From IMG/VR virus record IMGVR_UViG_3300047445_000153, positions 1-64,000 of that record: DNA of 64,000 nucleotides. One strand, 5' to 3'. The position numbers and the translations under genes were made by a program. The stretch's first letter is position 1. Every line of letters begins with the position of its first letter. The notes beneath the pieces were generated by a model. That model was not told where the DNA came from. It was given only the letters and a program-made list of their open reading frames with translations, and did not search any database. The stretch comes from a virus. Positions 11,467 to 61,335 of the stretch are shown piece after piece.

Positions 11467-11574
11467 GCGCGGTCGGCTCCGTCCACCACCGGAGCCGGAT
11501 GAAAGAAGAAGCTGGGTGCCCCGACCACCACCGGGGTTCCCAGCGGGTTCAACCAAAACCACACGGATCGAAAC

Positions 11575-12762
11575 ATGCCCGATTTGATCGACATCAAGCG
11601 CGAAGCACCGGAAGTGGTGCTGAGCAATCTGCGGCCGGACGATGCGAGCGACCAAGGTCGCTCCATCATGGCCGGTCAAAAGCTGGTTCGCCTCGCGGCG
11701 GATTCCGGCCTCAACCTGCGTGACTACCTCACGCTCGCGATCGACCCGCGCAAGGCGTCGGAACCGGCACGCTACGAAGGCCTGAACGGCTACGAAGCCG
11801 CGCTGTCGTTCCTCAACCTGCCGGTTCGCCAGGACCTCGAACAAGGCGTGCTGCTGCAAGCCGCCTCGGAAACGTTCCAGACGTATCCTGGCACGCGTGC
11901 CATGTTCCCGGAAGTGATGGACGACGTGCTGCGCTGGCGCAATCGTCAAGACCAGCTGGAATCGGTCGCACCGATCCTCGCGCAATCGCGCACGATCACG
12001 GGCACCGAGATGATCTCGACGTTCGTCGACGACGACAGCGCCGAGCGCACCACGCACTCGGTGGCTGAATTCGGCCGCGTGCCGGTTCGCACGATCCGTA
12101 CGTCGCAGTCCAGCGTCGGTATCTTCAAGCACGGCTCGGGCTACCGTACCTCGTACGAGTTCAACCGCCGCGCTTCGCTCGACCTCATGACGCCCTTCGC
12201 GTCGCGTGTCGGTCGCGAGCTGGAGATCTCGAAGGTGCGCGCTGCCACGAGCATCCTGATCAACGGCGACGGCGTGAACCCCGCAGCTCCGGTGGTCAAC
12301 CTGACCGCGTTCGGCGGCGACGCAGCCAAGCCGTTCGCGACCAACTACAAGGCGCTCGCCAAGTGGTTGCTCGCTCGCGCGAAGGCGGGCTACCCGATCG
12401 ACACGCTGCTCGGCAACTACGACATGTTCATTGAAATCTTGTTCATGTTCCAGCCGGTGCTGAACCTGGGCACGGCCACGGACATCGAGAAGATGGTCGC
12501 GCACGGTGCGCCGCAAGTGAACACCAGCCTGCCGATTCTGAACAAGTCGGTGAACTTCGCGCTGTCCAGCTCGGTGCCGGAAGGCCAGCTGATCGGCTTC
12601 ACGAAGGGTGAAACGCTGGAAGAGCTGGTTGAAGCAGGTTCGAACATCTCGGAAAACGAGCGTTCGATCATCAACCAGTCGATCACGTACGTGCGCACCG
12701 AAAACACGGGCTACAAGCTCGCGTTCGGCGACACCCGTCAGATCCTCGACACCGCAGCCTAA
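11575..12762 (+). CDS. major capsid protein
   Basis: 395 aa, VAEFG..P HK97-like E-loop motif, strong codon bias, followed by a terminator. Confidence 0.85.
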   Translation: MPDLIDIKREAPEVVLSNLRPDDASDQGRSIMAGQKLVRLAADSGLNLRDYLTLAIDPRKASEPARYEGLNGYEAALSFLNLPVRQDLEQGVLLQAASETFQTYPGTRAMFPEVMDDVLRWRNRQDQLESVAPILAQSRTITGTEMISTFVDDDSAERTTHSVAEFGRVPVRTIRTSQSSVGIFKHGSGYRTSYEFNRRASLDLMTPFASRVGRELEISKVRAATSILINGDGVNPAAPVVNLTAFGGDAAKPFATNYKALAKWLLARAKAGYPIDTLLGNYDMFIEILFMFQPVLNLGTATDIEKMVAHGAPQVNTSLPILNKSVNFALSSSVPEGQLIGFTKGETLEELVEAGSNISENERSIINQSITYVRTENTGYKLAFGDTRQILDTAA

Positions 12763-12788
12763 TAGCTTCCGGGTTGAAGGGTTGAAGG

Positions 12789-12820
12789 AAAGGCCCGCCC
12801 TCACGGGTGGGCCTTTTTTC
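12789..12820 (+). terminator. intrinsic terminator after capsid gene
   Basis: AAAGGCCCGCCC-tcac-GGGTGGGCCTTT plus T-run. Confidence 0.85.
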
Positions 12821-12842
12821 ACGCCTACGGACTCCACCACAC

Positions 12843-13208
12843 ATGAAAGTCATTGCACACACCACTGGCGCCTTCCAGTTGCTGGACGCCTTCAGCGGCG
12901 ACCTCATCCCGGCGCACCGCCCCGCTGTCATCGAAAAGACGATGTTCATCACCGCGCGCCTCGCGATTGAGCAAGTGAAGATCGTCGCTGAAGTGAACAG
13001 CTCGGCGACCGACGCGCAATTCGTGAAGCACTGGAAGGACTCGGACGGCGACATGGATCTCGCGATCCAGTCGTTCCTCGCGATCTACGGCCTGGACGTC
13101 GTGGCTCAAGAAGACGTGGCTCGGGAGCGCGAAGCTGAAGCTGAGACGGCCGCGCAAGAACCCGAAGCTGCCCCCGCCCCCGACGCGAAGAAAACGTCGA
13201 AGAAGTAA
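12843..13208 (+). CDS. hypothetical head-associated protein
   Basis: start MKVIAH at 12843, after the terminator; synteny. Confidence 0.65.
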   Translation: MKVIAHTTGAFQLLDAFSGDLIPAHRPAVIEKTMFITARLAIEQVKIVAEVNSSATDAQFVKHWKDSDGDMDLAIQSFLAIYGLDVVAQEDVAREREAEAETAAQEPEAAPAPDAKKTSKK

Positions 13209-13232
13209 GGCCTCCACCGAACAGGACTCATC

Positions 13233-13649
13233 ATGGCAAGCGATCTCAAGTACAGCGTCCCGCTGAAGAACGCTCAGCAAGACGCGATCACGACCGTGCT
13301 CGGCTCGAACGCGGTGCTGGAACTCTACAGCGGCACGAAGCCCGCTGGAGGTCCCTCCACCGCAATTACGTCGCAAGTGTTGCTATCCACGCACGCGTGT
13401 AGCGCGACGTTTGCACCGGGTTCCGCGAACGGCGTGGTCACGCTCAACAGCATCGCGAACGGCACCGGCACCGCAGGCGCGGGCGCGGGCACGAACGCAA
13501 CGTGGTATCGCTTGAAGACCTCGGGCGGCGTCGCGCACGTGGACGGCACGGTTGGTATCAGCGGCTGCGACCTGAACATCGACAACCCGAACATCGCGAC
13601 TAATCAGGTGGTCAAGGTGACGAGCTTCACGCTGGCTAACGGCAACTGA
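13233..13649 (+). CDS. virion structural protein (beta-rich)
   Basis: LELYSGTKPA..ATWYRL..DGTVG..DL pattern seen in phage structural proteins; AGGA RBS. Confidence 0.65.
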   Translation: MASDLKYSVPLKNAQQDAITTVLGSNAVLELYSGTKPAGGPSTAITSQVLLSTHACSATFAPGSANGVVTLNSIANGTGTAGAGAGTNATWYRLKTSGGVAHVDGTVGISGCDLNIDNPNIATNQVVKVTSFTLANGN

Positions 13650-13669
13650 TGTTCTGATCGGGGGCACGC

Positions 13670-16003: not shown

Positions 16004-16515
16004 TGGCCATCGTGAACCTCACGCGTGTCCTGATCAACACGACGCGCGGCAACTCGAAGATCTGGGGCAACGTCACTCTGCCGACCCCCGGCACGAGCGG
16101 CACCGTTGCGTTCGGGCCTGTTGCGAAGGTCCTGCTCGCGAAGCGTGGCTCAGTCGCGTACCCCGGCGACACCGTCATCGACCTCGACGACCGCTACGTC
16201 CTCGGCTACTACAGCAAGTCGGCCAACGACGAGCTGTTCCGCATGTTCCGCACGCCCTTCGCTGCGGACGTGATGCGGGTGGTCCCCGGCCAGGACCCGG
16301 TGACGGGATTCGATCGAGGCAGCAAGCCGGTGAAGGTCGGCTTCGCATGGTACGACTCGATGAACACTGGCTACGAGAATGACGTCAACTCGCTCAAGCG
16401 CACGAAGTACCGGATCATCACCGGCTTCGATCTGAAGGTGGGCGACCTACTCGATGGCATGAAGATCGCGACCGTCGCACAAGAGCTGGGCGTCACAATC
16501 GCTGAGGCCGAGTAA
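16003..16515 (+). CDS. putative head-closure / neck protein
   Basis: translationally coupled, neck position, QDPVTG motif. Confidence 0.55.
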   Translation: MAIVNLTRVLINTTRGNSKIWGNVTLPTPGTSGTVAFGPVAKVLLAKRGSVAYPGDTVIDLDDRYVLGYYSKSANDELFRMFRTPFAADVMRVVPGQDPVTGFDRGSKPVKVGFAWYDSMNTGYENDVNSLKRTKYRIITGFDLKVGDLLDGMKIATVAQELGVTIAEAE

Positions 16516-17378
16516 TGGCAACCCGTCCGCTCGACAAGGAATGGGCCGAGGTTAAAGCCTACGTGGAGGATATCTTCTTCACGGACCTGAACGAGAAGAT
16601 CGAGGGTGTTGCCGTCGATCTTGCGGATGAGATCGAGAAGTCGATCACCAAGCAGCTCGACACCTTCTTCTCGAACTTGGCGAACATGTTCGGGAACTGG
16701 GCGAACGGAGCCCCGGATTGGGTGCTTGATACCAACGGCGAGTGGCAGAACTACGCCTACTCTTACGCGGACTTCAAACAGGTCAAGAAGCGCGGTAGCC
16801 GGGACTTCTTCGTGCTGCGTGAGATGGCCCCGGCCTTTCGAGGCAAGTCCAACCTGGATCGCTACCTGCGTCGCCAGCGCCAGAAACGCGACACGAAGAC
16901 GAGAAAGAAAGGTCAGCTGAAGGGGCCGAGCCTCAAGCAAGAGATCAAGAGCCTAGCGAATCCCTCGAAGTATTGGGGAAGGCCCCTCGTGCTGATCGAG
17001 TCCCATACGAATACCCGCGGCAGGGATGGCAAGCGGCGTTACAACAAGGGCGTGACGCGCATGGGGAGTCATCCAGGCGGGCGGATCATGAACATCAAAG
17101 GGGACTTCGTCACCCTCCATGTCGAGTGGCTACCCGCGCTTTCAGGGCTTGACGTGCTCGAACGGGGCATCACCGAAGAGCCCGCTGCCGCAATGGGAAA
17201 GGGTGCGGGGGCTAGTCTTCCTCACGACGTGATTGCGAAGCTGATGAACCGCGAGATGCGCAACGACGGAAAGCTGGCGTACCGGCCGCTGCTTGGCCCC
17301 TACATGCTCTGGTATCAAGACACCACGGTGAGGCAGGTCATGCGGAAGACCGCCCTACCCTACGGACCACAACTATGA
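16515..17378 (+). CDS. putative neck / tail completion protein
   Basis: coupled ORF, basic, neck position. Confidence 0.5.
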   Translation: MATRPLDKEWAEVKAYVEDIFFTDLNEKIEGVAVDLADEIEKSITKQLDTFFSNLANMFGNWANGAPDWVLDTNGEWQNYAYSYADFKQVKKRGSRDFFVLREMAPAFRGKSNLDRYLRRQRQKRDTKTRKKGQLKGPSLKQEIKSLANPSKYWGRPLVLIESHTNTRGRDGKRRYNKGVTRMGSHPGGRIMNIKGDFVTLHVEWLPALSGLDVLERGITEEPAAAMGKGAGASLPHDVIAKLMNREMRNDGKLAYRPLLGPYMLWYQDTTVRQVMRKTALPYGPQL

Positions 17379-18008: not shown

Positions 18009-18032
18009 AACTTGGTTCTCCTATCAACCAAT

Positions 18033-18069
18033 AAAAACCTTTGATTCTCAAAGGTAGCACACGTAGCAT
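18033..18069 (+). promoter_or_regulatory. putative promoter of tail tube gene
   Basis: AAAAACCT TTGATT-17-TAGCAT. Confidence 0.55.
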
Positions 18070-18104
18070 CCGTGCTACCAGATTTTTCAACCGGAGAACT
18101 CACG

Positions 18105-18981: not shown

Positions 18982-19410
18982 ATGTCCACCACCACGAAGA
19001 AACCCACAGCTCCCGTGCCGCGTCTGAAGGTCACCGTCAACGGCGAGCCGCGCGAGCTGTTCATGTCGTTCGGCTTGCTCAACGAGCTTTGCCGAGGCGT
19101 CGGCAACGTCCAAGCCGCGATCCAGATCCCGGCCGACTCTGAGCTGCGCGACTACACCCTGATGGCCATCCTGTCGCCGCGCGATGCCCACGGCGAGGTC
19201 CAAGACCCGATCAATCTACGCTTGCTGGACATGTCGCTCGACGACGCCGAAGCCGTGCTGACCTGGGCCTCGGAGCACTGTTGCGATTTTTTTCTGCGGA
19301 CGATGGAGAGAATCGTCAAGACGCAGGAGAAAAATCTGGAGCGATACACGAAACTCGCACCAAAAAGCCAGGAAAGCTCACCGCCTTCACCGACTGGTTC
19401 CGCGACCTGA
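18982..19410 (+). CDS. tail assembly chaperone (gpG-like)
   Basis: between tail tube and tape measure; DFF motif on T TTT TTT. Confidence 0.75.
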   Translation: MSTTTKKPTAPVPRLKVTVNGEPRELFMSFGLLNELCRGVGNVQAAIQIPADSELRDYTLMAILSPRDAHGEVQDPINLRLLDMSLDDAEAVLTWASEHCCDFFLRTMERIVKTQEKNLERYTKLAPKSQESSPPSPTGSAT

Positions 19411-32026: not shown

Positions 32027-32061
32027 AACTCCTTGGGCGCGCTGGCCCGCGCCCGTAAAAT
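32025..32061 (+). promoter_or_regulatory. putative promoter of fibre-Hint-rSAM module
   Basis: AAAACTCC TTGGGC-17-TAAAAT. Confidence 0.5.
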
Positions 32062-32085
32062 TCGGGAACCAGAGGACACCACCAC

Positions 32086-33567
32086 ATGCAGCAATACACT
32101 CAGATTCCAGACAGTGCGCGAGTCTCCGACTCGCTGCTGCCGCTCCTGAATAACGACCAGACCGCGATCTCGCGCAACTCCGGCCCGAACTTCCCGACCG
32201 TGGGGCTGGTCGTTGGCATGCCCTACTACAGCACGAGCCAGAACAAGCTCTATCGGCTGTCGAGCGTGTCACCGCTCACGTGGGTGGTCGAGCTGGATTA
32301 CACGCGTCCCTTCGCCTATCAGGACAGCGTGGACGCGGCTAACGCGAACGCGAACGCGCGGGTGTCGCGAGCTGGCGACACCATGACCGGTTACCTGACG
32401 CTGGTCAACGACCCGGTCTCCGCGCTGCACGCCGCGTCGAAACGGTACGTCGATGCACAGGCAACGAATGCAATCAACAGCGCGAACTCGCGGGTCTCGC
32501 GTGGCGGCGACAGCATGTCGGGGTTCCTGACGCTGTACACCGATCCACAGCAGCCCTACCACGCCGCGACGAAGAACTACGTCGACTACCTCTACAACGT
32601 GGTGCAGGGCGCGAAGCTGAACCGTAACGGTGACACGCTCGGAGAGGTCTTCAACAACGGCTGGTACCGCTCGAACGGCGTGACGGGCTGGTACAGCCAG
32701 ACCTTCGGCGGCGGGATCTTCATGCAGGATACGTCCAACGTGCGTATCTACGGCGGCAAGGGCTTCAGCACCGACTGGCACTCGCTCGAACAGGGCACGG
32801 GGATGATTTGGACGAGTGGCTACGGCTGGCTTCACGAGCGCTTCGCGTCCAAGAGCGCCGAGGGCGCCCTGACTTCGGTCGGTACGCTGAACAGCCAGCC
32901 GAGTGGCGTCGTGCTGCCGCAGGCTTTCTACCTCCAGAAGAGCGGCAGTCAGGTGCAGCTGGTGCGTACGCTCGGCAACTGCAACTGCAACTGCGCCTGC
33001 ACGTGCTTCCCGGCTGGGACGCGGATCCTGATGGGCGACCGCAAGACGTGGCGCACCGTTGAGTCGCTGATGGTTGGCGAGATCGTCATGACCCCCACCG
33101 GCCCCGAGCCGATCATCGAGATCGAGACGCCGTTCCTCGGCGAGCGCTCGATGTGCATGTTCGCCGACGGCTCGCTCAAGTGGACCGATGACCATGCGTT
33201 CTGGACGCGCCGCGACGGCGTGGAAGGCTTCGCGGTGGTCGACAAGGCCTCGTTCATGAACGGGGTCCATGCGGGCGTCGTGAAGGGCCTGAATGACCAT
33301 GACGACCTACTGGAGCTGAACGACAAGCTCGACGAGTTCGCGCATCTCGATGGCTGGAAGAAGAAACGCGTGTTCCGCTACCCCGCCCCCGCCGAGACCA
33401 AGGTCTACCTGCCGATCGTCGGTGGCTCCCACATGATCATCGCGGAAGGCTTCGTCGTCAGCGCTGGCATGGACGAAGCCACCTTCGACTACGACAGCTT
33501 CGAGTGGAAGGGCATGGCCCTCGCCCACGTGCCGCTCAACAAGGAGCTGTTCAATGCTCGTCCATAA
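32086..33567 (+). CDS. tail fibre with Cys-rich motif and C-terminal Hint domain
   Basis: GDTMTG..HAA(S/T)K.YVD fibre repeats; GWY..GGGIFMQD shufflon/fibre-like motif; NCNCNCACT; CFPAGTRI (Hint block A), TDDH (block B), VY..V..SH..AEGFVVS (block F/G). Confidence 0.8.
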   Translation: MQQYTQIPDSARVSDSLLPLLNNDQTAISRNSGPNFPTVGLVVGMPYYSTSQNKLYRLSSVSPLTWVVELDYTRPFAYQDSVDAANANANARVSRAGDTMTGYLTLVNDPVSALHAASKRYVDAQATNAINSANSRVSRGGDSMSGFLTLYTDPQQPYHAATKNYVDYLYNVVQGAKLNRNGDTLGEVFNNGWYRSNGVTGWYSQTFGGGIFMQDTSNVRIYGGKGFSTDWHSLEQGTGMIWTSGYGWLHERFASKSAEGALTSVGTLNSQPSGVVLPQAFYLQKSGSQVQLVRTLGNCNCNCACTCFPAGTRILMGDRKTWRTVESLMVGEIVMTPTGPEPIIEIETPFLGERSMCMFADGSLKWTDDHAFWTRRDGVEGFAVVDKASFMNGVHAGVVKGLNDHDDLLELNDKLDEFAHLDGWKKKRVFRYPAPAETKVYLPIVGGSHMIIAEGFVVSAGMDEATFDYDSFEWKGMALAHVPLNKELFNARP

Positions 33568-34255: not shown

Positions 34256-35598
34256 CAACCTTCGTCCTCAAAACGGCCGAGGGCCGCGACTTCTTCTACA
34301 ACAACATGCGCAGCACGCTGGTCGACGCCTGCACGGGTCGCCCCGTGCTCGCTCCGCGAGAGGTTGACACCCCTCGAAGCCCTGCCCCGCAAGACTTCCG
34401 CAAGTCGGAAACGATCCGGACGCTGAAGATCCAGATGGGTCTGTCGTGCAACTACAGCTGCGAGTATTGCTCGCAGCGGTTCGTGCCGCACGCGGAGCCC
34501 ACCGGCCCCTACTCGGTCGATCACTTCATCTCGCGCCTGAGCTGGAACGCCTCGCTCGCGGACGACGCCACGGTGGAGTTCTGGGGTGGCGAGCCACTGG
34601 TCTACTGGAAGACGCTGGTCCCGCTCGTCGAGCAGCTGCGCATTCGCTACCCGGCGCTGACCTTCAAGATGATCACGAACGGGTCGCTGCTCGATCCGAT
34701 GAAGGCGAGCTGGCTGATCGCGAATGGCTTCCACATCGGCATCTCGCACGACGGTCCTGGCCAAGCCGCACGCGGGCCGGACCCGCTCGATGATCCCGAG
34801 AAGCGCGAGGCGATCCTGATGCTGTACCGGCGCCTGCGACCGCTCGGGCGTATCAGTTTTAATGCAATGCTGCACTCGCAAAATACATCGCGTGCGGCGA
34901 TACAACAGTTCTTCGTCCGGCTGACGAACGACGCGGAAGTGCCCATCGGCGAGGGCATGTTTGTGGATGCCTACGACGAGGGCGGCAGGGGTATGTCTTT
35001 CCTTGACGCTCAGGATCACGTCGACTATCGTCGCAAGGCGTTCGACGAGCTGAAGGCGGGGATGGCTCTCAATTTCAGCTCGGTGACCGAGAAGATCTAC
35101 GACTTCGCAGACTCCTTGCAAACGGGTCGCTTGGCGTCCACCGTTGGCCAGAAGTGCGGTTCCGATCGCTCCGACAGCCTCACGGTGACGCTCGACGGCG
35201 ATGTCCTCACGTGCCAGAACGTATCGGCTGTCTCCGTCGCCCCGAACGGAAAGAGCCACCGGGCTGGCTCGATCGAAGACATGGCTGCGGTGCGCGTGCA
35301 GTCCTCGCGCCACTGGTCGACCCGCGAGCACTGTTCCAGCTGCCCTGTCGTGCAGCTATGCAAAGGCTCTTGCATGTTCCTCGAAGGCGATCTCTGGGAT
35401 GTCACGTGCGATACCGCCTACAGCGATAACGTCGTGTTCCTGGCGACTGCCCTCTTGGAGCTGACAGGCTGTACGTTGCAACGCATCGAGCCGATGACTG
35501 GTTCGCTGCCCGAAACCCGCCAGAGTGTCTTCGGACCTCTGGCGCATAAGCGGACCACCACCCGCAAAATCATACGGATCGAAACGGAAAAATCATGA
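34252..35598 (+). CDS. radical SAM protein with SPASM domain
   Basis: CNYSCEYC; FWGGEPL; ITNGSLL; ISHDG; C..GDVLTC..CSSC..LCKGSC..C SPASM cysteines. Confidence 0.92.
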   Translation: MTTFVLKTAEGRDFFYNNMRSTLVDACTGRPVLAPREVDTPRSPAPQDFRKSETIRTLKIQMGLSCNYSCEYCSQRFVPHAEPTGPYSVDHFISRLSWNASLADDATVEFWGGEPLVYWKTLVPLVEQLRIRYPALTFKMITNGSLLDPMKASWLIANGFHIGISHDGPGQAARGPDPLDDPEKREAILMLYRRLRPLGRISFNAMLHSQNTSRAAIQQFFVRLTNDAEVPIGEGMFVDAYDEGGRGMSFLDAQDHVDYRRKAFDELKAGMALNFSSVTEKIYDFADSLQTGRLASTVGQKCGSDRSDSLTVTLDGDVLTCQNVSAVSVAPNGKSHRAGSIEDMAAVRVQSSRHWSTREHCSSCPVVQLCKGSCMFLEGDLWDVTCDTAYSDNVVFLATALLELTGCTLQRIEPMTGSLPETRQSVFGPLAHKRTTTRKIIRIETEKS

Positions 35599-36177: not shown

Positions 36178-36207
36178 TTCGGCACTCACCACCACCACGA
36201 GTGCTCG

Positions 36208-36741
36208 ATGTCCATCACCGCCGCCCAGCTCCAGAGGGTTTGGAAGCGCGCGCCGGCCGCGCGCTGTGCCCTGTTCGCCCCACTTCTCTCCGACGCGATG
36301 GCTCGCTTCGGTATCGACACGCTCGAAGAGACGGCCGAGTTCATCGCGCAGGTCTCGCACGAGTCTGGAGAAGGCCAGTGGCTTGAAGAGATTGCGAGCG
36401 GCAAGGCCTATGAAGGCCGCTTGGATCTCGGCAATACCGAGCCGGGGGACGGGGAAAAGTTTAAGGGTCACGGGATGATCCAGTGTACTGGCCGCAAGAA
36501 CCATCTCTTGATGGGAATGCTGCTTGGCCTGGACCTCATCGCCAACCCTCGCCTGCTGTGTGAACCGAAGAACGCGTGTGACAGCGCTGCGGCTTTCTGG
36601 TGGAACCACAAGCTCGACGACCTCGCGGCCAAGAAGGACTTCGTCAAGGTGACGAAGGTGGTCAACGGCGGTACGAACGGTCTAGCGGAACGGCAAGCCT
36701 ACCTTGCACTCGCCCGCGCAGCGCTCACGGAGATTGCATAA
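36208..36741 (+). CDS. endolysin, glycoside hydrolase family 19
   Basis: FIAQVSHESG, YEGRLDLGN..GDG.KFKGHGMIQCTGR, TKVVNGGTNG. Confidence 0.9.
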   Translation: MSITAAQLQRVWKRAPAARCALFAPLLSDAMARFGIDTLEETAEFIAQVSHESGEGQWLEEIASGKAYEGRLDLGNTEPGDGEKFKGHGMIQCTGRKNHLLMGMLLGLDLIANPRLLCEPKNACDSAAAFWWNHKLDDLAAKKDFVKVTKVVNGGTNGLAERQAYLALARAALTEIA

Positions 36742-43491: not shown

Positions 43492-43507
43492 CCGTGGATT
43501 TGCCCTA

Positions 43508-43841
43508 TTGGGAGGATTTCCGGGTTGCGTTAGTTCGGAGGAAATGGTTATCCACAAACGCTCGCGCGGGGTTTGTAGACGTTTGTATACGTTTGTAGGA
43601 GGCTGAGACCCTTCACCAGTAAGGCTTTGCTGGGAGCTATTGGGAGGATTTCCAGACGCATTGGGAGAATTTCCAGACGAACTGGGAGGATTTCCGGGTT
43701 GGTGATTGGGAGGATTTCCAGACGAATGCCTGTTATCCACAGGTTTTGCCCGGAAATCCTCCCAGTGACAACGGATCGGGAGGGATGATAATCTAAACCC
43801 TCCCAGTCATCCGGCCTGCGACAACCCGGAAATCCTCCCAA
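43508..43841. repeat. iteron-type plasmid origin: 7 iterons and 2 DnaA boxes
   Basis: TGGGAG(G/A)ATTTCC direct copies near 43509, 43641, 43662, 43683, 43707; inverted copies near 43752 and 43828; TTATCCACA at 43548 and 43733. Confidence 0.9.
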
Positions 43842-45455: not shown

Positions 45456-45696
45456 GAAACATCTCCTTGAACGCTTGGCGCTTCGCACGAACCGTCTCTA
45501 GCAACTCGCGCTCTTTCTGTTTGTCCCGCTTGAGCATCGGCGCCCATGCGAGGTAGTGCTCACCGACTTCGCCGATCCACGTGCCGGTGACGAGGATGCC
45601 GCCGACCGTCAGCAGCATGCACTTGGCGAGGCCGTGCTTGGGCTTCTCGTAGGTCCAGGCCACGGTCTGCGCGGCCACGTATTCTTGTGCTGTCAT
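45448..45696 (-). CDS. hypothetical protein
   Basis: coupled small ORF in minus-strand array. Confidence 0.6.
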   Translation of the reverse strand: MTAQEYVAAQTVAWTYEKPKHGLAKCMLLTVGGILVTGTWIGEVGEHYLAWAPMLKRDKQKERELLETVRAKRQAFKEMFHD

Positions 45697-45974
45697 GCCA
45701 CATACTCCTCGAATGAGAGTGCGACGTGCCCGTCCTTGAGGCCGTAGCCCGACTGCACGTGCGTAATGAGAAGGGTCTGGATCCAGCCGGTGTAGATGAG
45801 GGGAGCACCAGCTTGCATCTCCTCGAAGCTGTGCTGCGTCTGGTACAGCTCCAGAACGTCCCCCACCCGATAGCCCCGGTCGTTGAAGCGGATCTCGGCC
45901 CGCTTCAACCCATTGGCGACGTCGTCGAAGGTTTGAGGATCAGCCTTCAACAGATGAATTCTGCGTGTGGTCAT
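45693..45974 (-). CDS. ASCH/PUA-like protein (DUF3850)
   Basis: HLLK..F..V..G.KRAEIRFNDRGYRVGD.LEL. Confidence 0.8.
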   Translation of the reverse strand: MTTRRIHLLKADPQTFDDVANGLKRAEIRFNDRGYRVGDVLELYQTQHSFEEMQAGAPLIYTGWIQTLLITHVQSGYGLKDGHVALSFEEYVA

Positions 45975-48295: not shown

Positions 48296-49275
48296 CGCAG
48301 GTCCTCCACGAACACGCGCTCGAACGGGCGCTCCAGATGGGCGTGGTCCATCATCACGCGCAGGCCGTTCAGCTGTGCCCCGGTCAACGGCGTGTTGGCC
48401 ATCTTGTCGGTCTCGGCCAGCGTCATCGAACGACGCAGGCGCGGCGGTGTCGGCAGGCCCTTGAGGGAGATCTCGACGTCCTTGCGGTGCTGGTGCCAGC
48501 CGCGCAGATTGCCGGACGTCGCGGTCGACGTCAGCATCGGCGTGGCCTGATGTTCAGTGGGTGATGCATGGATGGGATGTGATCCGACGAGCTTGCTGTA
48601 GCGATCCCGCTCCTTTTCCTGCGAGGGGTTGCCGTCGAATGGTTCATAGCTGATACGCGCGCAGCGTGCAGCCGAAAACTGGAGCTGGTCGTTGAGCGAC
48701 AGCTTGCGGCGCTCTTCGGTGAGAACATACGGGAGATGCCACTCGTTGTAGCGGAGCAGCTTCGGCACGCTGGTCTCGATCGCGGTCATGATCTCGATCG
48801 CGAGGTCGCGCATCGTCGGATCCGCGTCGGGATGGCAGCGCAGCATGTCGAAGTTGTCCCAGTCCGTCGCCGTGATCAACACGTCGAGGTACTGGTACGG
48901 CTCGGTCACGCGGTTGGCGATTTGCTTGTGTGCGCCGAGCATCATCAGCCCCCAGCTGTGCAGAGCCGCAAACAGCGACGCTGACTTCCAGATGGCCTTG
49001 GCCCCCTTCAACCGCCAGCCGGTGAGCTGTGCGCCCGCCTGCATACCTGGCTTGTTGGTGCCCCACTCCGTGGGACAGGCAGGGTCGAAGATGACTTGAT
49101 CAAGCATCTTGCTGATCGGCTTGGCACGCGAGGAGCCCGAGTTCTGAGAGAACGCTCGATGTCGGAGCAGTTCCGCCGCGACGATGCGCGGGAAGCGGAC
49201 TTTCACAGTGGTGATACGGACGCCATGCTGTGCGATGGAGTCCTCGATTACTTCGGCCAGAATTGTTGGTTTCAT
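48292..49275 (-). CDS. thyX: FAD-dependent thymidylate synthase (ThyX-like)
   Basis: AELLRHRAFSQNSGSSRA, HKQIANR, SAARCARISY, HASPTEHQA. Confidence 0.8.
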   Translation of the reverse strand: MKPTILAEVIEDSIAQHGVRITTVKVRFPRIVAAELLRHRAFSQNSGSSRAKPISKMLDQVIFDPACPTEWGTNKPGMQAGAQLTGWRLKGAKAIWKSASLFAALHSWGLMMLGAHKQIANRVTEPYQYLDVLITATDWDNFDMLRCHPDADPTMRDLAIEIMTAIETSVPKLLRYNEWHLPYVLTEERRKLSLNDQLQFSAARCARISYEPFDGNPSQEKERDRYSKLVGSHPIHASPTEHQATPMLTSTATSGNLRGWHQHRKDVEISLKGLPTPPRLRRSMTLAETDKMANTPLTGAQLNGLRVMMDHAHLERPFERVFVEDLR

Positions 49276-49329
49276 TGTTCGATTCAGGAGCGGTGGTGGA
49301 CGCCCCTTTGCCTGTTAAAAGTTTTGTTT

Positions 49330-49908
49330 TTAGGAGTTACGTGCGTCGAGCCCGCCCTTGTCTGCCCGTGCTTCAGCAGCGACATTCGAATACTTGTCGG
49401 GGAAACGCTCTTGAAGCTTCGCGATGTTCTCCGCCATGAGATCTTCGATCGTGAAAGCTTGCAAGGCATCGCAGGCATGAGTCACTGCGGCAACGATGTT
49501 GATCAGGCTGCGCATGACGAACTCCCGGCTGGCAGGGCTGTCAAGCAGAGGAGCCTGGAAGGCAATGAAGCCGATTTCCATCGCGATGCGGCACGCGATC
49601 ATGTTCAACTGCGTGGCCGTGCCGAAGCGCGAGAAGTCTTCGAACAGGCCCTGACCTGTCGGGACGTCGCAGTCGATCGCGTCAGCTGCGATGGCCACGT
49701 ACCAGAGGAGATCTCCAAGCTCCTCGCGCATGTGACCGATGAACTCAACCGACAACGGCTTTTCATAGATCGCGATGCGTTTGACTACGGTTGTGAATTC
49801 GCCGTTCTCGGTGGCCAGACCAAGGATGGCGTGATTGAGACGCAGGTGAGTCGTAGCTAACGGCTTCTCGGTGCGTAGTGCCAAAGGCTTGTATTGCTGA
49901 AAGTTCAT
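49330..49908 (-). CDS. MazG-like nucleotide pyrophosphohydrolase
   Basis: LGLATENGEF, EELGDLLWY, NIAKLQERFP. Confidence 0.85.
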   Translation of the reverse strand: MNFQQYKPLALRTEKPLATTHLRLNHAILGLATENGEFTTVVKRIAIYEKPLSVEFIGHMREELGDLLWYVAIAADAIDCDVPTGQGLFEDFSRFGTATQLNMIACRIAMEIGFIAFQAPLLDSPASREFVMRSLINIVAAVTHACDALQAFTIEDLMAENIAKLQERFPDKYSNVAAEARADKGGLDARNS

Positions 49909-49929
49909 AGTCGTTGTGGTGGTGATCGG

Positions 49930-50280
49930 TTAATAAGTTTCAGGCGGTGCTGTGAACCACAGACGGCGCCTTTCTGTTGCTACCGCAGGCAGTGCGTACT
50001 GAATCAGGAACCCCTCCTGATCCTTCTTCTGCATCAGCGTTACCAACCCCTCGTCATGTTTGATGCGAGCAACAAACAAGGTATGGAGATCCCGCTGATT
50101 CCATCTGTACTCACCCGGTTGCCTACGGGCGATGATGAATCGATACAGCTGCGGGTCTCCCCAGTTGGAGAGATCAAGCTCCTTCATCTCTTCAACTACG
50201 CGCTCCACGGTGGTGGCGAGGAGCGCAGCGATATACGGGGGCGTACAGTTTTGATCCAACAGCGTCTTGATGTTTTCCAT
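49930..50280 (-). CDS. hypothetical protein
   Basis: AAGGGG RBS; ORF in array. Confidence 0.6.
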   Translation of the reverse strand: MENIKTLLDQNCTPPYIAALLATTVERVVEEMKELDLSNWGDPQLYRFIIARRQPGEYRWNQRDLHTLFVARIKHDEGLVTLMQKKDQEGFLIQYALPAVATERRRLWFTAPPETY

Positions 50281-53337: not shown

Positions 53338-53450
53338 GATTTACCCCTTAATGGGTCAGTGTGTATCCGAAAAGGAAGACCACCCCGGTGGTGAACAGCG
53401 AGGCGGTTACTACCTGGACCAGCTTGAGGAGCTGGTCCACTTTGTTGATT

Positions 53451-54059: not shown

Positions 54060-54507
54060 TACTTTGGCCAGATAGAAGAAGTGCGAATCGTGGATGATTC
54101 GAGAATAGGTGGTGGGCTATCTCGGACCACTTCACCGACATTGCATCATGGTCGATGAGAAACGCTGCGTTGATCACATACCACTCGCCGGTTGATTCCC
54201 GACGAATGATGAATAGGTACTGCCCGCCAGCTGTGATAGCTTTGCGCGCGGCACGCCATTGGTTTTTGGAGATCATGCTGAGGCGAAACGACGGCTCGTG
54301 AGCCGTGCTCTTCACTTCAGCGTAGAACATCATCCCGTCCCACGTCACGACGAAGTCGGCGGGCTGGGCGTCCTTGATTGATTTCTTGAGACCAGTTGCT
54401 CCGCGCACGTAGGCGGTATCGGTCAGGCGCTCGACAGCCGCGCGCTTCCCGAATGGCGCAAAGAACGAGACGAACTCATCCTCCGCGTCTTTCCAGACGT
54501 GCTTCAT
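54043..54507 (-). CDS. PD-(D/E)xK nuclease, probable Holliday junction resolvase
   Basis: AE..PADF..YAEVKS..Q. Confidence 0.7.
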   Translation of the reverse strand: MKHVWKDAEDEFVSFFAPFGKRAAVERLTDTAYVRGATGLKKSIKDAQPADFVVTWDGMMFYAEVKSTAHEPSFRLSMISKNQWRAARKAITAGGQYLFIIRRESTGEWYVINAAFLIDHDAMSVKWSEIAHHLFSNHPRFALLLSGQSNDKVS

Positions 54508-54592
54508 TTTTCTTTGACTTTTACCAGTGGTGGTGGTGTCTGAGGATTATAAACAAGATGCAAGCTTTAAGGATCAATGTTGTAAAAAAGTT

Positions 54593-56674: not shown

Positions 56675-59376
56675 GCGGTGCACTCCTCTTCTTGTTCGAC
56701 GGGCATGCCGTCGAGGATGTAATCCAAAATCGCCTTGCGCTCTTCCCGCGTGGCATGCTTGCCCCAGCGGTCTTCAGAGACACACGGCAACCCCTTTTGC
56801 ATTTCCATCAGTTCGACCTGACCGCTGGTCGACGTCTTCGGGTTCCACGCCTGCAACGTCTTGCCGATCGCAAGCGATGAGTCCAGCATCAAGTTCTTGA
56901 TCAGGCCGCTGTCCTTGATCATCTCCTCATACAGCACGTCGAGGAAGTCGAGCACTTGCGAGCGCGGCACGCTGTAAACCAGCTCATCGTGGATCAGCAG
57001 GTAGAAGCGCGCACGGAAGGCCTCAGCCTTGATGCGATCGTTCATGCGCGCCATCGTCCGCTTAGCAAGCGCAGCACACAGCCCCTGCACCTTCGCGTTC
57101 ACACACTGGTTGCCAGCACGGCGATTGATCTTCTTGATGACCAGTTCACCGAACGCCGCGATGGCCGGGTCACCATAGGACTGGAACTTCATCCGCATGA
57201 TGTTGACCCACTCGTCGGTCGACTCGAAGCGGTCCCGCCGATGATGGTCCGGCAGCTCGACGTAGCCCAGCTCGCGCGCCTCGTTGATGGTGCCGATGCG
57301 CCACTCCTCGGCCACGGGGAACGTCGCACGGTACTTGTCCGTCATCTCCCACATGGTCTCGCTCGACCACCCCAGGACCTCGGCCGTCGTGCCGAGCGCA
57401 CCTGAGTACCAGTACCCGAAGTTCGCTGGCTTGCCCACGTCGGTGCGCAGCTGCTTCTTGTTCGGGTTGTTCTCGTACTCTTCGTCGGTCAGCCCCATCA
57501 GACCGGTGACGGCCTCCTTGTGCAGATCGTCGTGCGGACGCTGGCCATAAGCCTTGCGGAACTTCGGATCGTTCGAGTAATCCCCGATGATCACCAGCTC
57601 CACTGCCGACCAGTCGGCCGATACCAGCACGTGCTCCTCGCCCTCTGCGTCGTCGTCATCGGCCTCGAAGAAGCCCCGGACATACGCCGCCTCACCGAAC
57701 TTGCTGAGCTGCTGGCCGTTCGGGTTCTGGCACGAGCTGCGGCGGGTCGCCAGCAGCGACGACAGCTGCGGATACACGCGACCGGTGTCCGGGTCCACCA
57801 GCAGCAGGTACGGGGTCAGGTACAGCTTCACGCGCTGCGCGAGGCTCGCCATCGCCTTGTACGTGCGGAAGACCGTGAGGCCTGCCTCGTAGCGCTCGAT
57901 TACCGAGATCTTGTTGAGCGTCAGGCCTAGCTTCAGCTTCAGCGCCGGGGCCACTTCGCCCTTGTCGTCGATCTCCAGGCCTGCGTCGCGGTGCTGCTTG
58001 ATCCAGCGGCGCTCCAGCTCATCACGGCAGTCGCCATCGCTCTGCGTCTTGCCATCAGCCTGCATGTACGAGCCGCGCAGCAGGTCATAGATGACCGTGC
58101 GCATCGGCATGTAGTGGACCAGATTCACGCCGCTCGATTCCTTCATGCCGCGCTCGGTCGCCCACGCGGCCGACACCGGGCTGCGGACCTGATAGCACTG
58201 CTCGAAGTCGTCGTCGCTATCCGGTGACAGCGCCCACTTCTCGATCTGCTGGCGGTACTTCTTGTAGCCCGTCGAGCCCTTGACCGGGTCGACATACCAC
58301 TTGTCGTACTTGGCCAGCTTCTCGTGTGGCTCGTCATCGAACGGCAGCAGCGCCTTGATCGCGGCCTTCATGGTGCGAAGGTGACGTGCCTCGTTCGAGC
58401 GCTCGATGTCGCGGCGTTCGAGCACCGCCTTGCCGTTGAGCTTGATGCCATGCTGCCACGCCTCGGAGGCCGAGCGAACGAACGGCATCTCCTGCTGCAT
58501 GAACGTGTTGAAGACCGGTGGGTTGGTCTGCATGATGTACTGCATGAGGCGGTGGAACAGCTGCACACACCAGTACGCATCGTCCACGCCGTACTCGTAG
58601 ACCTGCTCGCCGGTCAGCATGCCCATGTGGACTTCGTCGCCCAGCGTCTCGTCGAAGGTCGCCATCTTGTAGCCGAACCAGCTCAGCACCGCGCGCTTCA
58701 GGTCGTAGCCGATCTTGATCGACGCGACGTAGCCGTTGTAGCTGTGCGCTGAAGTCGACTCCTTGGCCGTGACCTTGAAGACCAGATCTTCTTGGTCCGC
58801 GTTCAGCGTCATGCCCTGCTCGTAGCCCGCGAACTTGCGCGAGACGATCGGCAGCAGCTTCTCGATGCCCCCGAGTCCAGGCTCGCGGAACGTGTCCTTG
58901 AAGTAGGTGTCGGGCGAGTACGCGGACACGGCCATCTGCAACGTGCAGATGACCTTGGTGCCCAGGTCGTAGCCGAGGGACTTCATCATCATCGTCCACT
59001 CGAAGCCCGCGTTGTGGATCAGCCAGTAGGCGTCCGGCGCCTTCGCATCGAGCAGGCGCTTGGCTTGGCTCCAAGGCACACGGTTCTCAACGTCCGCGTG
59101 CTTCAGGTTGATGTAGTAGCCCAGCTCGTTGCCGTCCGGGTAGATCGAGAAGCCCGTGACGTTGGTCCGGTTCGTGTCGAAGACGAGGCGCGTGGACGAG
59201 GACTTCTTGCCTTCGTCGTTGACCTTCATGAAGAGGTTCAAGCCTTCATGACGTTCGCTGTCCTCGGTCTCGATGTCGAAGCCGACAAAGCCGACCGACG
59301 CAATCTCCGAGATGAGCGCTTCCGCGTAGTCATCCCAGTTGCGCGCGTCGATCAGAATTTTCCGATCGCGATCCAT
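56671..59376 (-). CDS. DNA polymerase family A with 3'-5' exonuclease
   Basis: GFDIET, HNAGFE, YGVDDA; motif A SADWSAVE, motif B R..GKPANFGYWY, motif C IHDEL. Confidence 0.93.
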   Translation of the reverse strand: MDRDRKILIDARNWDDYAEALISEIASVGFVGFDIETEDSERHEGLNLFMKVNDEGKKSSSTRLVFDTNRTNVTGFSIYPDGNELGYYINLKHADVENRVPWSQAKRLLDAKAPDAYWLIHNAGFEWTMMMKSLGYDLGTKVICTLQMAVSAYSPDTYFKDTFREPGLGGIEKLLPIVSRKFAGYEQGMTLNADQEDLVFKVTAKESTSAHSYNGYVASIKIGYDLKRAVLSWFGYKMATFDETLGDEVHMGMLTGEQVYEYGVDDAYWCVQLFHRLMQYIMQTNPPVFNTFMQQEMPFVRSASEAWQHGIKLNGKAVLERRDIERSNEARHLRTMKAAIKALLPFDDEPHEKLAKYDKWYVDPVKGSTGYKKYRQQIEKWALSPDSDDDFEQCYQVRSPVSAAWATERGMKESSGVNLVHYMPMRTVIYDLLRGSYMQADGKTQSDGDCRDELERRWIKQHRDAGLEIDDKGEVAPALKLKLGLTLNKISVIERYEAGLTVFRTYKAMASLAQRVKLYLTPYLLLVDPDTGRVYPQLSSLLATRRSSCQNPNGQQLSKFGEAAYVRGFFEADDDDAEGEEHVLVSADWSAVELVIIGDYSNDPKFRKAYGQRPHDDLHKEAVTGLMGLTDEEYENNPNKKQLRTDVGKPANFGYWYSGALGTTAEVLGWSSETMWEMTDKYRATFPVAEEWRIGTINEARELGYVELPDHHRRDRFESTDEWVNIMRMKFQSYGDPAIAAFGELVIKKINRRAGNQCVNAKVQGLCAALAKRTMARMNDRIKAEAFRARFYLLIHDELVYSVPRSQVLDFLDVLYEEMIKDSGLIKNLMLDSSLAIGKTLQAWNPKTSTSGQVELMEMQKGLPCVSEDRWGKHATREERKAILDYILDGMPVEQEEECTA

Positions 59377-59378
59377 GC

Positions 59379-59564
59379 TTACTCCATCGTGCTTGCGGCG
59401 ACTTCCGAGCCGACCAGCGCGACGGCGAACATGCCGATGCCGTCATCGCGCTTGATGATGGAGCGGATCTCATCTGCTGCTGCCTGGATCTTCGCCTGCG
59501 TGTCTGCATCTTGCTTGCCGATCTCGTCCTTGACGATGAGCAGCTGAATGTATTCCGGTGCCAT
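59379..59564 (-). CDS. hypothetical protein
   Basis: fills gap between exonuclease and polymerase. Confidence 0.55.
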   Translation of the reverse strand: MAPEYIQLLIVKDEIGKQDADTQAKIQAAADEIRSIIKRDDGIGMFAVALVGSEVAASTME

Positions 59565-59592
59565 TGTTTCGATCCTGTTGTGGTGGTGGTGG

Positions 59593-60375
59593 TTACAGCA
59601 TGAAATCTTTCAGCACATCGTTGAGCACGCGATCATCGCGCTGGCCGACAACGAGGTTGTCGAAGATGTCTTGGAGCGGCACGTCGTAGAAGCCCGTGAT
59701 CTCCCACATAGCCTTGAGCGTCGCTTCGTTGGCCTTGACCCATTCGATGGTCTTCTTGCCGAGATTGAAGCTGCCAGCTTCGCTGTCCCAGCACGGCGTA
59801 TAGTCTTCCGTGAAGTACTGAAGCCAGCGCTCGCGGTCGCAGTGCTCCCACGCCTTCGGGCCGAAGCCAGGGATGCCGGGGATCTTGTCCGAGCTGTCAC
59901 CGACCAGCGTCTTCATCAACCGGACTTCGGTGAAGTCGGTGTGGGCGTAGCCGTTCTTCTTCGAGCCGATCATCGTCGTGTGCTGGCCGTCACACACGGC
60001 GAAGTAGTCGCCGTCAGTAGAGTGAATCCTGATGGCGTCCGTGCTCGGCTTGTAGTGGTTGGCAAGCTTGACGATCACGTCATCTGCTTCCCACCCCTTC
60101 AGCTCCAGCGACATGCAGCGCGTGAAGCGCAGCACCTGCTTGAACAGATCCGCTGTCTTGTAGAACTGGTCAGGCGCCGGTTGGCGTCCGACCTTGTAGC
60201 CGGGGAAGACCTTGCGACGACGCTCTTTAGCGCCGTGGCCATCCCAGCACCAGATGATCGTATCGAACATGGGGAGCATGTTCATCTCATACAACACGTC
60301 GCGGATCGTGCCGTTCGCTTCGAACTTGATTCGAAACTGGTTGTTGCCATCTATCAGATGGAGAGTGCGTTGCAT
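59593..60375 (-). CDS. 5'-3' exonuclease / flap endonuclease
   Basis: LIDGNN, WDG, YKVGR, EADD, STDGD, LVGDSSDKIPGIPGFGPK. Confidence 0.92.
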   Translation of the reverse strand: MQRTLHLIDGNNQFRIKFEANGTIRDVLYEMNMLPMFDTIIWCWDGHGAKERRRKVFPGYKVGRQPAPDQFYKTADLFKQVLRFTRCMSLELKGWEADDVIVKLANHYKPSTDAIRIHSTDGDYFAVCDGQHTTMIGSKKNGYAHTDFTEVRLMKTLVGDSSDKIPGIPGFGPKAWEHCDRERWLQYFTEDYTPCWDSEAGSFNLGKKTIEWVKANEATLKAMWEITGFYDVPLQDIFDNLVVGQRDDRVLNDVLKDFML

Positions 60376-60397
60376 GGTTGACCTCGCAGGGGCGTAG

Positions 60398-60430
60398 AAA
60401 AAGCCGCGAACTTTCCCAAGTTCGCGGCTT
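60398..60430 (-). terminator. intrinsic terminator
   Basis: AAGCCGCGAACTT-tccc-AAGTTCGCGGCTT with A-run on the left. Confidence 0.8.
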
Positions 60431-60447
60431 CCGATGACGCTAGGCGG

Positions 60448-61185
60448 TTAGGCCGTCGCGCCTTCTTCCTGCTCTACTTCTGCGTACTCGCCCAGCGACT
60501 CCCAGCACATCACGCCCCAGGCGTTGCCCGCCTTGTTCGTCATCCGCTTCGAGGTCACCTTGACCGCCACTTGCGCGCCGATCAGGCCTTCCTGCATGAC
60601 CCGCTGGTAGAAGTCCTGCCATTCCCGCCAGTTGGTCGTCGACGTGGCGTAGCCCACGCGGGTACCCGCCTTGGCCAGCAGCACGCCCTTCGGCGACACG
60701 ACGTCTTTCGTCAGGACCATCGGGACGTCGACCGAACGATACGGCTTCTGCTTGTTGTCGATGGTGGTCGCTTTCGTGATCGCCTCGACCCAGCTGATGC
60801 CCTTGTCGCTCTGCACGCCGTCGTACGTCGACCAGTACTGCGCGGGGTTCCCCGCCTTGATCGACATCTTCGGCGCGAAGCCGATGCCTTCGGTCATGTC
60901 GATGTAGGCGTCGAACTCTTGAATGAGTTCTTCGCCGCCGACGAGCATGCCGTATTCCTTGACCTTCGCCCAGATGTCGACGTTCATCGCGCCGGTCATC
61001 AGCTGGTCCATCGAGAGCTTCTGACCCGGCGTACCCGGCATGGCTACTGCACCGGGTTGAGCGACTGCCACGGCCCCGCCTGCTGCTGCGGTTGCTGCCG
61101 CGTTCGATGCTGCTGCGCCTGCTGCTGCGGCGATTTGGCCTGCTGCTGCTTGGGCCTTTTCGATTGCTTGTTGGATCGGATCCAT
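60448..61185 (-). CDS. probable single-stranded DNA-binding protein
   Basis: AAGG RBS; replication cluster; aromatic beta-rich core; acidic C-terminal tail. Confidence 0.55.
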   Translation of the reverse strand: MDPIQQAIEKAQAAAGQIAAAAGAAASNAAATAAAGGAVAVAQPGAVAMPGTPGQKLSMDQLMTGAMNVDIWAKVKEYGMLVGGEELIQEFDAYIDMTEGIGFAPKMSIKAGNPAQYWSTYDGVQSDKGISWVEAITKATTIDNKQKPYRSVDVPMVLTKDVVSPKGVLLAKAGTRVGYATSTTNWREWQDFYQRVMQEGLIGAQVAVKVTSKRMTNKAGNAWGVMCWESLGEYAEVEQEEGATA

Positions 61186-61335
61186 AATGCCTTTTCCTTT
61201 GAAATGTGAAAGCGCCAGTTTCGGGTTCGTAAAACCTCGCGACTGAGTGGTGGGATCAGCAGCGAGTTCGAAGATCATAGCTTCGATCTTCTAACCATTC
61301 AATCGGAACTAGACGATAGTTCCAAAAGAATTTTC

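Follow-up and report, generated by a model that had tools for sequence, protein, structure and literature searches.

A single-stranded CCACCAC element at translation starts with weak Shine-Dalgarno sequences in one clade of JWF-like siphophages

Here, we describe the heptamer CCACCAC as a recurrent leader element in a window of 64,000 nucleotides (nt) of viral DNA (positions 1 to 64,000 of IMG/VR record IMGVR_UViG_3300047445_000153) and in the relatives of this virus. The heptamer lies on the sense strand close to translation starts with weak Shine-Dalgarno (SD) sequences and is kept single stranded, either as a bare run or in the loop of a hairpin. The initial annotation of this DNA had proposed a genome-wide cis-element, possibly one that enhances translation. 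The peak of the runs at −15 to −11 from start codons, the weak SD sequences of the genes concerned, and the strong SD sequences of their motif-free orthologs agree with such an element, acting on the sense strand at the RNA level and tied to translation starts. We lean toward a model in which it replaces the SD sequence in the initiation region and promotes recruitment of the 30S subunit at its genes.

The window covers the opening 64 kb of a phage genome of 81,905 bp assembled from rhizosphere metagenomes. This genome has its gene order in common with Achromobacter phage JWF, with ∼75% nucleotide identity across the capsid gene. Nearer relatives in IMG/VR have capsid identities of 79 to 89% and include proviruses; one is a phage-like locus (L021) in Burkholderia paludis MSh1, and at least one member of the clade is a Burkholderia prophage. 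Genes of the first arm (1 to 6.3 kb) and of the last (45 kb onward) point leftward, and those of the middle arm (6.3 to 45 kb) point rightward, as drawn by our crude gene caller. All gene starts come from this home-made caller, which rewards SD sequences. Comparisons within the clade used this genome and five complete relatives (G001 to G005), the six forming one lineage, while the sister phages JWF and 2-1 and phages Seuss, Lumi, and KS14 served as the comparison set for motif counts. In the window, no tRNA genes were found and no Rfam family matched at its gathering score.

CCACCAC is strongly overrepresented and one sided. The window holds 38 copies against 8.47 ± 2.50 expected (maximum 16 in 100 dinucleotide-preserving shuffles), which on our crude gene map divide into 15 intergenic copies, all on the local sense strand, 13 genic sense copies, and 10 genic antisense copies. 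For the 15 sense and 0 antisense copies in intergenic DNA, 1,000 order-1 shuffles gave 0.53 ± 0.74, with a maximum of 4. An unbiased scan of sense-oriented intergenic DNA returned CACCAC as the most enriched hexamer (35 vs. 5 expected). The enrichment was confirmed, and so was the proposed switch of strand with the direction of transcription, which holds in the window and throughout the six genomes: intergenic sense and antisense copies stand at 25:0 here and at 34:1, 32:1, 28:1, 22:2, and 32:7 in the five relatives. Copies within genes are mildly biased to the sense strand (106 sense vs. 56 antisense).

The genes that carry the motif have weak SD pairing. Across the six genomes, the motif falls within −45 to +15 of the start in 106 of the 670 called genes, about one in six. 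For these 106, the median SD duplex energy is −3.1 kcal/mol, compared with −5.9 kcal/mol for the other genes (p = 1e-17), and SD pairing reaches −6 kcal/mol in 10% of them but in 47% of the others. Several of these genes had already been said to lack a good SD sequence, and the comparison of orthologs with aligned N-termini leads to the same conclusion. In 95 pairs, motif genes average −1.98 kcal/mol and their motif-free orthologs in JWF or 2-1 −5.24 kcal/mol, while 282 control pairs of genes without the motif do not differ (−4.90 vs. −4.93). After collapse to JWF gene families, 17 motif families give −2.08 vs. −5.18 kcal/mol (p = 0.0008); the values for 29 control families are −4.92 vs. −5.11 (p = 0.5). 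The leaders of ThyX, MazG, endolysin, the resolvase, and the gene starting at 12843 have essentially no SD sequence here and a good one in JWF. Because the SD sequences of the motif genes are weak and those of their motif-free orthologs strong, the motif sits where the SD sequence was given up. It is not a disguised SD sequence: CCACCAC resembles the anti-SD sequence (the 3′ end of Burkholderia 16S rRNA is GGATCACCTCCTTT) and is not complementary to it.

The stems of the hairpins covary under an unchanging loop, as the reading of their differing stem sequences as RNA structure had foreseen. For the covariation test, the two hairpins of the capsid leader were picked by their orthologous place and not by their pairing. 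Across orthologous capsid leaders the heptamer is invariant, whereas stem pairs changed on both sides at 11/13 (distal hairpin) and 9/13 (proximal hairpin). Paired cells amount to 87% and 74%, compared with 63% and 64% in shuffles, and sliding the partners abolishes the signal; none of 500 shuffles matched the covariation score. The sequences share descent, so that the changes are not independent events, although their direction is clear. Read on the sense strand, the stems contain 28 G-U and 9 A-C combinations, and this excess argues for RNA rather than DNA. These patterns in the aligned sequences point to selection on stem structure at the RNA level. Pair statistics of a further alignment (A1, the basis of model R1) were excluded from the evidence, since its sequences had been chosen for pairing and the argument would be circular.

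Sense-strand CAC runs up to 120 nt upstream of a called start yield 110 leader elements in the six genomes: 65 bare runs, 35 copies displayed in hairpin loops above a stem of at least six pairs, and 10 ambiguous cases. Their consensus is W-CCACCAC-R, often extended to (CAC)n. Bare runs are 7 to 12 nt long, preceded by T or A in 56/65 cases and followed by A or G in 54/65 (by A alone in 37/65). The single longer run, in G005 (locus L044, near 69464 in record coordinates), is an uninterrupted (CAC)16 of 48 nt located 15 nt before a start codon, a length prone to slippage. The 3′ ends of the runs peak at −15 to −11 from the start codon (43 runs in this bin). Most bare runs end within 0 to 19 nt of the start, and 42/65 end 0 to 15 nt before it; a second group lies at +10 to +24, i.e., in codons 2 to 7, as in ATG ACC ACC ACC. 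The hairpin loops range from 8 to 16 nt; they are mostly 8 nt, of the form N-CCACCAC, and mostly closed by a G-C pair. The distance from the end of the loop motif to the start takes preferred values (9 to 17, 42 to 46, 57 to 61, 69, 79, or 85 to 96 nt, with single cases at 24 and 50 nt). An exact N+CCACCAC loop with at least five perfect closing pairs surrounds 21 of the 173 intergenic sense copies, compared with 0.9% of other positions (p = 3e-17), and among intergenic hairpin loops of more than 3 nt, TCCACCAC is found most often. The predicted probability of being unpaired is 0.91 for the loops, 0.76 for the bare runs, and 0.44 to 0.48 for the flanks. Altogether, the folding predictions show an element kept single stranded on the mRNA, as a bare run or in a hairpin loop.

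Two simpler identities were rejected. Several elements fill the 26- to 47-nt spacers between codirectional genes and begin straight after the upstream stop codon; therefore, these copies have no link to transcription starts, and a general role as a promoter-proximal element is ruled out even though AT-rich −10-like boxes precede some runs. Neither are the hairpins intrinsic terminators, because they lack a U-tract: none of the 35 has five or more T in the next 10 nt, and the mean is 1.7. The depositors of JWF labeled many intergenic hairpins as putative transcriptional terminators; the corresponding class in the motif clade is without T-runs.

The individual elements of the window are collected in Table 1. 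Six of the seven hairpins named in the initial annotation fold as described. The seventh, at 53379-53407, does not belong to the class because its motif lies in the stem, where CACCACC is paired with GGGGUGG. Likewise, the bare runs before the primase, 12843, tail fiber, MazG, resolvase, and 59564 genes stand as placed, and only the run at 10601 is ambiguous, since it encodes a conserved Thr-Thr-Thr and the ATG downstream has a GGAG of its own. The start of the primase is most likely the ATG at 5774, for which the SD-rewarding caller had picked a TTG at 5690. A weak ribosome-binding block close to starts, GGATC(G/A)AA(A)C, was also observed in the window at 11560-11577, 35575-35590, 59565-59580, and elsewhere; it occurs at 20/106 motif genes and 17/564 others in the six genomes, and also in JWF and 2-1.

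Table 1. CCACCAC elements of the window and two clade-restricted proteins. Positions are those of the window unless a locus is named; SD energies are dG in kcal/mol, this genome vs. JWF.
Feature	Position	Strand	Motif, loop, or size	Folding energy and scores	Context
Distal capsid-leader hairpin	11473..11498	+	loop UCCACCAC, 9-bp stem	−16.6 kcal/mol; model R1 31.6 bits	motif ends 85 nt before capsid ATG at 11575; orthologous place kept in 12/13 sources
Proximal capsid-leader hairpin	11511..11544	+	loop ACCACCAC	−25.7 kcal/mol; z −3.8	motif ends 43 nt before ATG; 41-45 nt from start in 13/13 sources
Weak 4-bp hairpin	35550..35565	+	loop ACCACCAC	−6.6 kcal/mol; R1 15.8 bits, E 0.07	within 3′ end of radical SAM gene, 33 nt before ATG at 35595
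Endolysin-leader hairpin	36179..36207	+	11-nt loop ACCACCACCAC	−11.1 kcal/mol	3′ arm touches ATG at 36208; no SD (−2.5 vs. −6.1); orthologous hairpins in G001, G002, G003, G005
ThyX-leader hairpin	49286..49307	−	loop UCCACCAC	−10.9 kcal/mol	3′ arm ends 10 nt before ATG at 49275; no SD (+0.1 vs. −5.8); orthologous hairpins in G001-G004 with different stems, 14-16 nt from start
SSB-leader hairpin	61236..61266	−	loop UCCCACCAC	−13.7 kcal/mol	∼50 nt upstream of ATG at 61185; orthologous hairpins in G001-G003, 57-58 nt from start
Hairpin, class membership uncertain	50199..50227	−	loop CCACCAC	−15.9 kcal/mol; z only −1.9	in 5′ part of open reading frame (ORF) 49930-50280; similar hairpin in G004
Bare run, tentative	3064..3072	−	CACCACCAC		13 nt before in-frame ATG (∼3050), small ORF 2865-3095
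Bare run	5787..5795	−	CACCACCAC		12 nt before ATG at 5774, 839-aa primase ORF
Bare run	12834..12840	+	CCACCAC		2 nt before ATG at 12843, directly after terminator-like hairpin; no SD (−3.2 vs. −7.7)
Post-start run	18986..18995	+	CCACCACCAC		codons 2-5 (ATG TCC ACC ACC ACG) of gene 18982-19410; example of post-start group
Bare run	32077..32085	+	CACCACCAC		fills gap from AGAGGA to ATG at 32086 (0 nt), tail fiber/Hint gene
Bare run	49916..49924	−	CACCACCAC		7 nt before ATG at 49908, MazG-like gene; no SD (+0.3 vs. −5.8)
Bare run	54527..54538	−	(CAC)4		19 nt before ATG at 54507, resolvase-like gene; SD −2.8 vs. −7.9
Bare run	59580..59593	−	ACCACCACCACCAC		directly after upstream stop, 28-nt intercistronic spacer, 15 nt before ATG at 59564
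Ambiguous run	10601..10610	+	CCACCACCAC		22 nt before in-frame internal ATG (10633) of protease/scaffold gene
P0001	L061:13269-13514	−	81 aa		conserved basic N-terminal half, invariant K, Y, R, T
P0002	L061:7829-8515	−	228 aa		phrog_1915

The element does not extend to the sister phages. CCACCAC is not in excess in JWF, 2-1, Seuss, and Lumi (32, 35, 24, and 28 copies vs. 25, 40, 31, and 39 of a reversed control pattern); of the 32 copies in JWF, most are antisense within genes, and the intergenic sense-to-antisense count is 3:0. A general feature of Burkholderia phages is ruled out by KS14, which has a single copy in 32 kb. In a 400-kb sample of host sequence, 0/273 genes have the motif near the start. 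A search of the B. paludis genome with model R1 returned 35 matches (E ≤ 10), with only 150/3540 candidates scored; the best are on contig C1, where four matches between 187 and 231 kb surround the phage-like locus L021 (221-242 kb), and six inspected matches outside that region lie within GC-rich stretches under long ORFs. The clustering of matches at the phage-like locus, together with the host gene sample, rules out a host-wide element. Hairpins with a CCACCAC loop precede the capsid gene in 11/15 IMG/VR loci, the others being JWF-type loci and L011, whose genome (G005) uses the motif elsewhere. One 14-mer hairpin core recurs in at least 116 IMG/VR stretches, and 4 of 80 loci examined encode relatives of the proteins of this phage. 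In five inspected motif-dense but unrelated IMG/VR loci, the copies lie away from starts and without hairpins, which does not imply a wider absence of the element. Altogether, as far as sequence comparison can tell, the element is restricted to one clade of JWF-like siphophages.

We suggest that single-stranded CCACCAC stands in for the SD sequence at the genes that carry it and promotes binding of the 30S subunit, a model we hold with somewhat more belief than doubt. In this model, bare runs, and likewise the start-adjacent loops of ThyX and endolysin, would act inside the ribosome footprint, whereas copies 40 to 96 nt upstream would serve as standby or tethering sites. Recruitment would be either direct, the element being a C-rich non-SD ribosome-binding or standby site, or through a factor. 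Both the positive sign of the effect on translation and the identity of the binding partner are matters of inference. The genes served include those for the capsid, SSB, and endolysin, which need high output, and this favors an activating over a repressing role. Moreover, the SD sequence is lost precisely at the motif, and because these three genes cannot spare an initiation signal, the sign of the effect should be positive. The strict invariance of seven bases and the failure of the host to use them argue for a factor.

Several observations weigh against this model. The single copy in KS14 and the absence of the motif from sampled host starts are not expected if host ribosomes favor the motif intrinsically. 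The 16S rRNA of a Burkholderia (1533 nt, from a relative of the host within the genus) lacks both GUGGUGG and GUGGUG; two sites read UGGUGG and five read GGUGG, the number of hexamers being near chance, and pairing with 16S rRNA is not favored, no 6- to 7-nt match exceeding chance. Loops 42 to 96 nt upstream fall outside the normal 30S footprint. The pairs in the ortholog test are not independent and its family-collapsed version comprises only 17 families, and the test leans on the starts of the home-made caller, although the requirement for aligned N-termini partly secures it. Finally, the C-rich sites reported by Barendt et al. (2012, PMC3310771) are described there as performing poorly in Escherichia coli cells.

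As for a partner, the ASCH/PUA ORF that the initial annotation had offered as a speculative candidate does not qualify: this ASCH-like DUF3850 ORF (45693-45974) has no homolog in 5/5 motif-bearing relatives, is private to this genome, and is ruled out. A G/U-rich RNA partner is not apparent in this genome, where antisense intergenic copies number 0, and a Pfam scan of 86 small and medium phage proteins disclosed no RNA-binding domain. Among 13 clade-restricted proteins, Pfam and PHROGs recognized only ArdA, DUF2528, and unnamed families. Of the proteins of unknown function, only P0001 and P0002 occur in 5/5 relatives while JWF, 2-1, Seuss, and Lumi lack them, a co-occurrence with the motif that is confounded with phylogeny. 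Relatives of P0001 in IMG/VR are confined to contigs of this phage family, and its own leader contains a CAC run both here and in G004. A profile search of the PDB with P0001 gave nothing below E 0.3, and Atlas returned only unnamed viral clusters with scores <0.85. It is a rather long shot that a dedicated factor, perhaps P0001 or P0002, reads single-stranded CCACCAC and delivers the 30S subunit to SD-less phage mRNAs. If so, translation of about one-sixth of the phage genes would bypass host-type initiation or be favored over it.

Other roles would also account for part of the data. The heptamer might be the operator of a sequence-specific RNA-binding regulator, from phage or host, that represses or times translation at the initiation region, where T4 RegA and CsrA (on GGA loops) also sit. 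A strictly invariant heptamer on drifting stems, displayed in loops as well as in bare leaders by the start, would suit such a protein, as would the confinement to one clade whose host does not use the motif and the family-confined distribution of P0001, which co-occurs with the motif as does P0002. However, given that the SD sequence is lost exactly at the motif, the genes for capsid, SSB, and endolysin would be almost without means of initiation if the motif served repression alone; sites before early, replication, and late genes alike are ill suited to a timing switch, and neither the 86 proteins scanned nor the phylogenetically confounded co-occurrence supplies the regulator. We consider this operator unlikely. 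Signals for mRNA processing or stability, i.e., endoribonuclease cleavage sites or barriers protecting cistrons, for which the link to start codons would be secondary, are less likely still. They would explain why hairpins stand between cistrons, some shortly after the upstream stop, without being terminators, and the phage encodes an Rv2179c-like 3′-5′ exoribonuclease domain; but motif-free JWF has this exonuclease too, a hairpin can protect without an invariant loop, the 65 bare runs among 110 elements form no barrier, and neither the sharp peak relative to the start nor the reciprocal loss of SD sequences would be expected.

The remaining alternatives place the function in DNA or in transcript elongation. 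The complement of the motif, GTGGTGG, resembles Chi cores, and rut sites are C-rich and G-poor. A DNA-level site, either an oriented block to transcription like the stoperators of L5 or a priming or Chi-like signal on the lagging-strand template, is very improbable in our judgment. Its orientation tracks the gene arms, which may match the direction of replication; the relatives include proviruses, the genome has a plasmid-type replicon (Rep3), and the site is asymmetric, intergenic, and one way, as stoperators are in the account of Pope et al. (2011, PMC3203893). Against this, a DNA site would not be tied to positions 11 to 15 nt from start codons or trade off with the SD sequence, stem covariation and the G-U excess on the sense strand point to RNA, a heptamer makes a short site for a DNA-binding protein, and genic copies are only mildly biased. 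The least probable of the roles considered, to which we give hardly any credence, is action on elongation through boxB-like antitermination, one of the options originally raised, or through Rho-related C-rich loading sites. A conserved loop on a variable stem, C-rich and G-poor composition, and a boxA-like CGCTCCCCTTAAAA ahead of the endolysin-leader hairpin speak for it. Yet ∼20 to 35 sites per genome, instead of one or two behind early promoters, many of them in 26- to 47-nt spacers or touching the start codon, and their occurrence before early, replication, and late genes alike make a boxB-like role unlikely; in addition, there is no logic of U-tract terminators, the loss of SD sequences is left unexplained, and the scan of 86 proteins revealed nothing N-like or NusG-like.

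Further recurrent sequences were noticed in these genomes. A 15-bp palindrome, GTGCGAC-N-GTCGCAC, stands before genes of the early arm (window 1981-2060 and ∼740-760; locus L061 at ∼10470-10500, 10850-10880, 16115-16140, and 16800-16830) and often adjoins a CCACCAC element, e.g., CACCACCAC-aac-GTGCGACTGTCGCAC. This palindrome probably serves a dimeric DNA-binding protein as operator. A partly palindromic block, AACTATCGTCTAGT(T), occurs three times in long intergenic regions (window ∼6395-6420 and 61290-61315; L061 ∼4720-4745), upstream of a CCACCAC hairpin in 2 of 3 cases, and may be a promoter or operator. Other intergenic hairpin loops recurring in the six genomes are CGAAATAAT (3 copies) and CTGGCC (7 copies), found in the window at 9850-9900 and 32040-32065; these hairpins carry AT-rich −10-like boxes. 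An array of TTGGGAGGATTTCC-like repeats (iterons) lies at 43492-43840 between an RHH-like gene and the Rep3 initiator gene, and the genome also codes for two H-NS-like proteins.

Lambda boxB with N, the MS2 coat operator, and CsrA with its GGA loops likewise combine a short, constant loop sequence with a stem that varies freely, and CsrA also resembles the present case in that the same motif is used unstructured by the SD sequence. These systems differ from CCACCAC in loop sequence, copy number, and placement, and searches of the phage proteins turned up no corresponding family. The lambda nut system in particular relies on one or two sites after early promoters, a GNRA-like loop, and an N-type protein, whereas CCACCAC loops are mostly 8 nt. 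The stoperators of cluster A phages, as outlined in PMC3203893, are likewise numerous, asymmetric, intergenic, and oriented with transcription, but they are 13-bp DNA sites for a repressor, for which that outline gives no hairpin covariation, fixed relation to starts, or trade-off with the SD sequence.

Closer in presumed function are C-rich sites that support initiation. In the ribosome display for fast translation reported in PMC3310771, CCACC was the top pentamer among non-SD sites, AC repeats were associated with SD function, and position dependence was loose; C-rich leaders in phages, including the Burkholderia phage KS14, were pointed out as well. The bare CCACCAC runs resemble these sites as a C-rich motif within ∼18 nt before the AUG, whereas the latter were selected in vitro with E. 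coli ribosomes. The C/A-rich enhancers with ACA motifs in GcvB targets (Yang et al. 2014, PMC3879156) are also single-stranded elements that stimulate initiation without strict spacing and lie just upstream of the SD sequence. Their unit is ACA, and they act together with an SD sequence in host genes, while the CCACCAC genes have a weak SD sequence or none; the core of the heptamer is CAC/CCA, with ACA arising only at run ends. In the passages of the two papers that deal with these sites, neither system has a fixed heptamer, display in hairpin loops, or a natural regulon in which the SD sequence is replaced. We found no published description of the CCACCAC element in the literature on CCACCAC in phages and on C-rich or non-SD phage sites, supplementary tables aside.

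The nearest described system is the start-associated sequence (SAS; 13 bp, consensus GGGATAGGAGCCC) of cluster K mycobacteriophages, with its extended form (ESAS) (Pope et al. 2011). In that paper, SAS was without known function and a role in translation initiation was proposed. Judging from its sections on these repeats, both SAS and CCACCAC are short, asymmetric repeats in one orientation just upstream of many starts, conserved within a cluster or clade, placed at genes from various families, and virtually missing from the host genome. SAS differs in containing the SD core AGGAG, in lying 3 to 7 bp from the start, and in serving nonstructural genes only, and the inverted repeats of ESAS were judged not to support RNA hairpins, whereas about one-third of CCACCAC copies lie in the loops of covarying hairpins. 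CCACCAC has no SD complementarity, replaces the SD sequence, also lies downstream of the start codon or as far as 96 nt ahead of it, and precedes structural (capsid, tail fiber), lysis (endolysin), replication, and early genes.

SD-less translation starts in bacteria and phages are still poorly understood. Element-based annotation is of immediate use because CCACCAC flags true starts that SD-based callers miss, as at the primase. If a factor is involved, the element would represent a novel way for a phage to control host ribosomes and possibly an orthogonal expression signal. Compared with SAS, the motif clade is a cleaner natural experiment, in which a seven-base signal with two modes of display is present in 22 to 34 intergenic sense-strand copies per genome, the sister group JWF and 2-1 has the same genes with ordinary SD sequences, and one relative is a prophage in a cultured Burkholderia, which makes the question directly testable.

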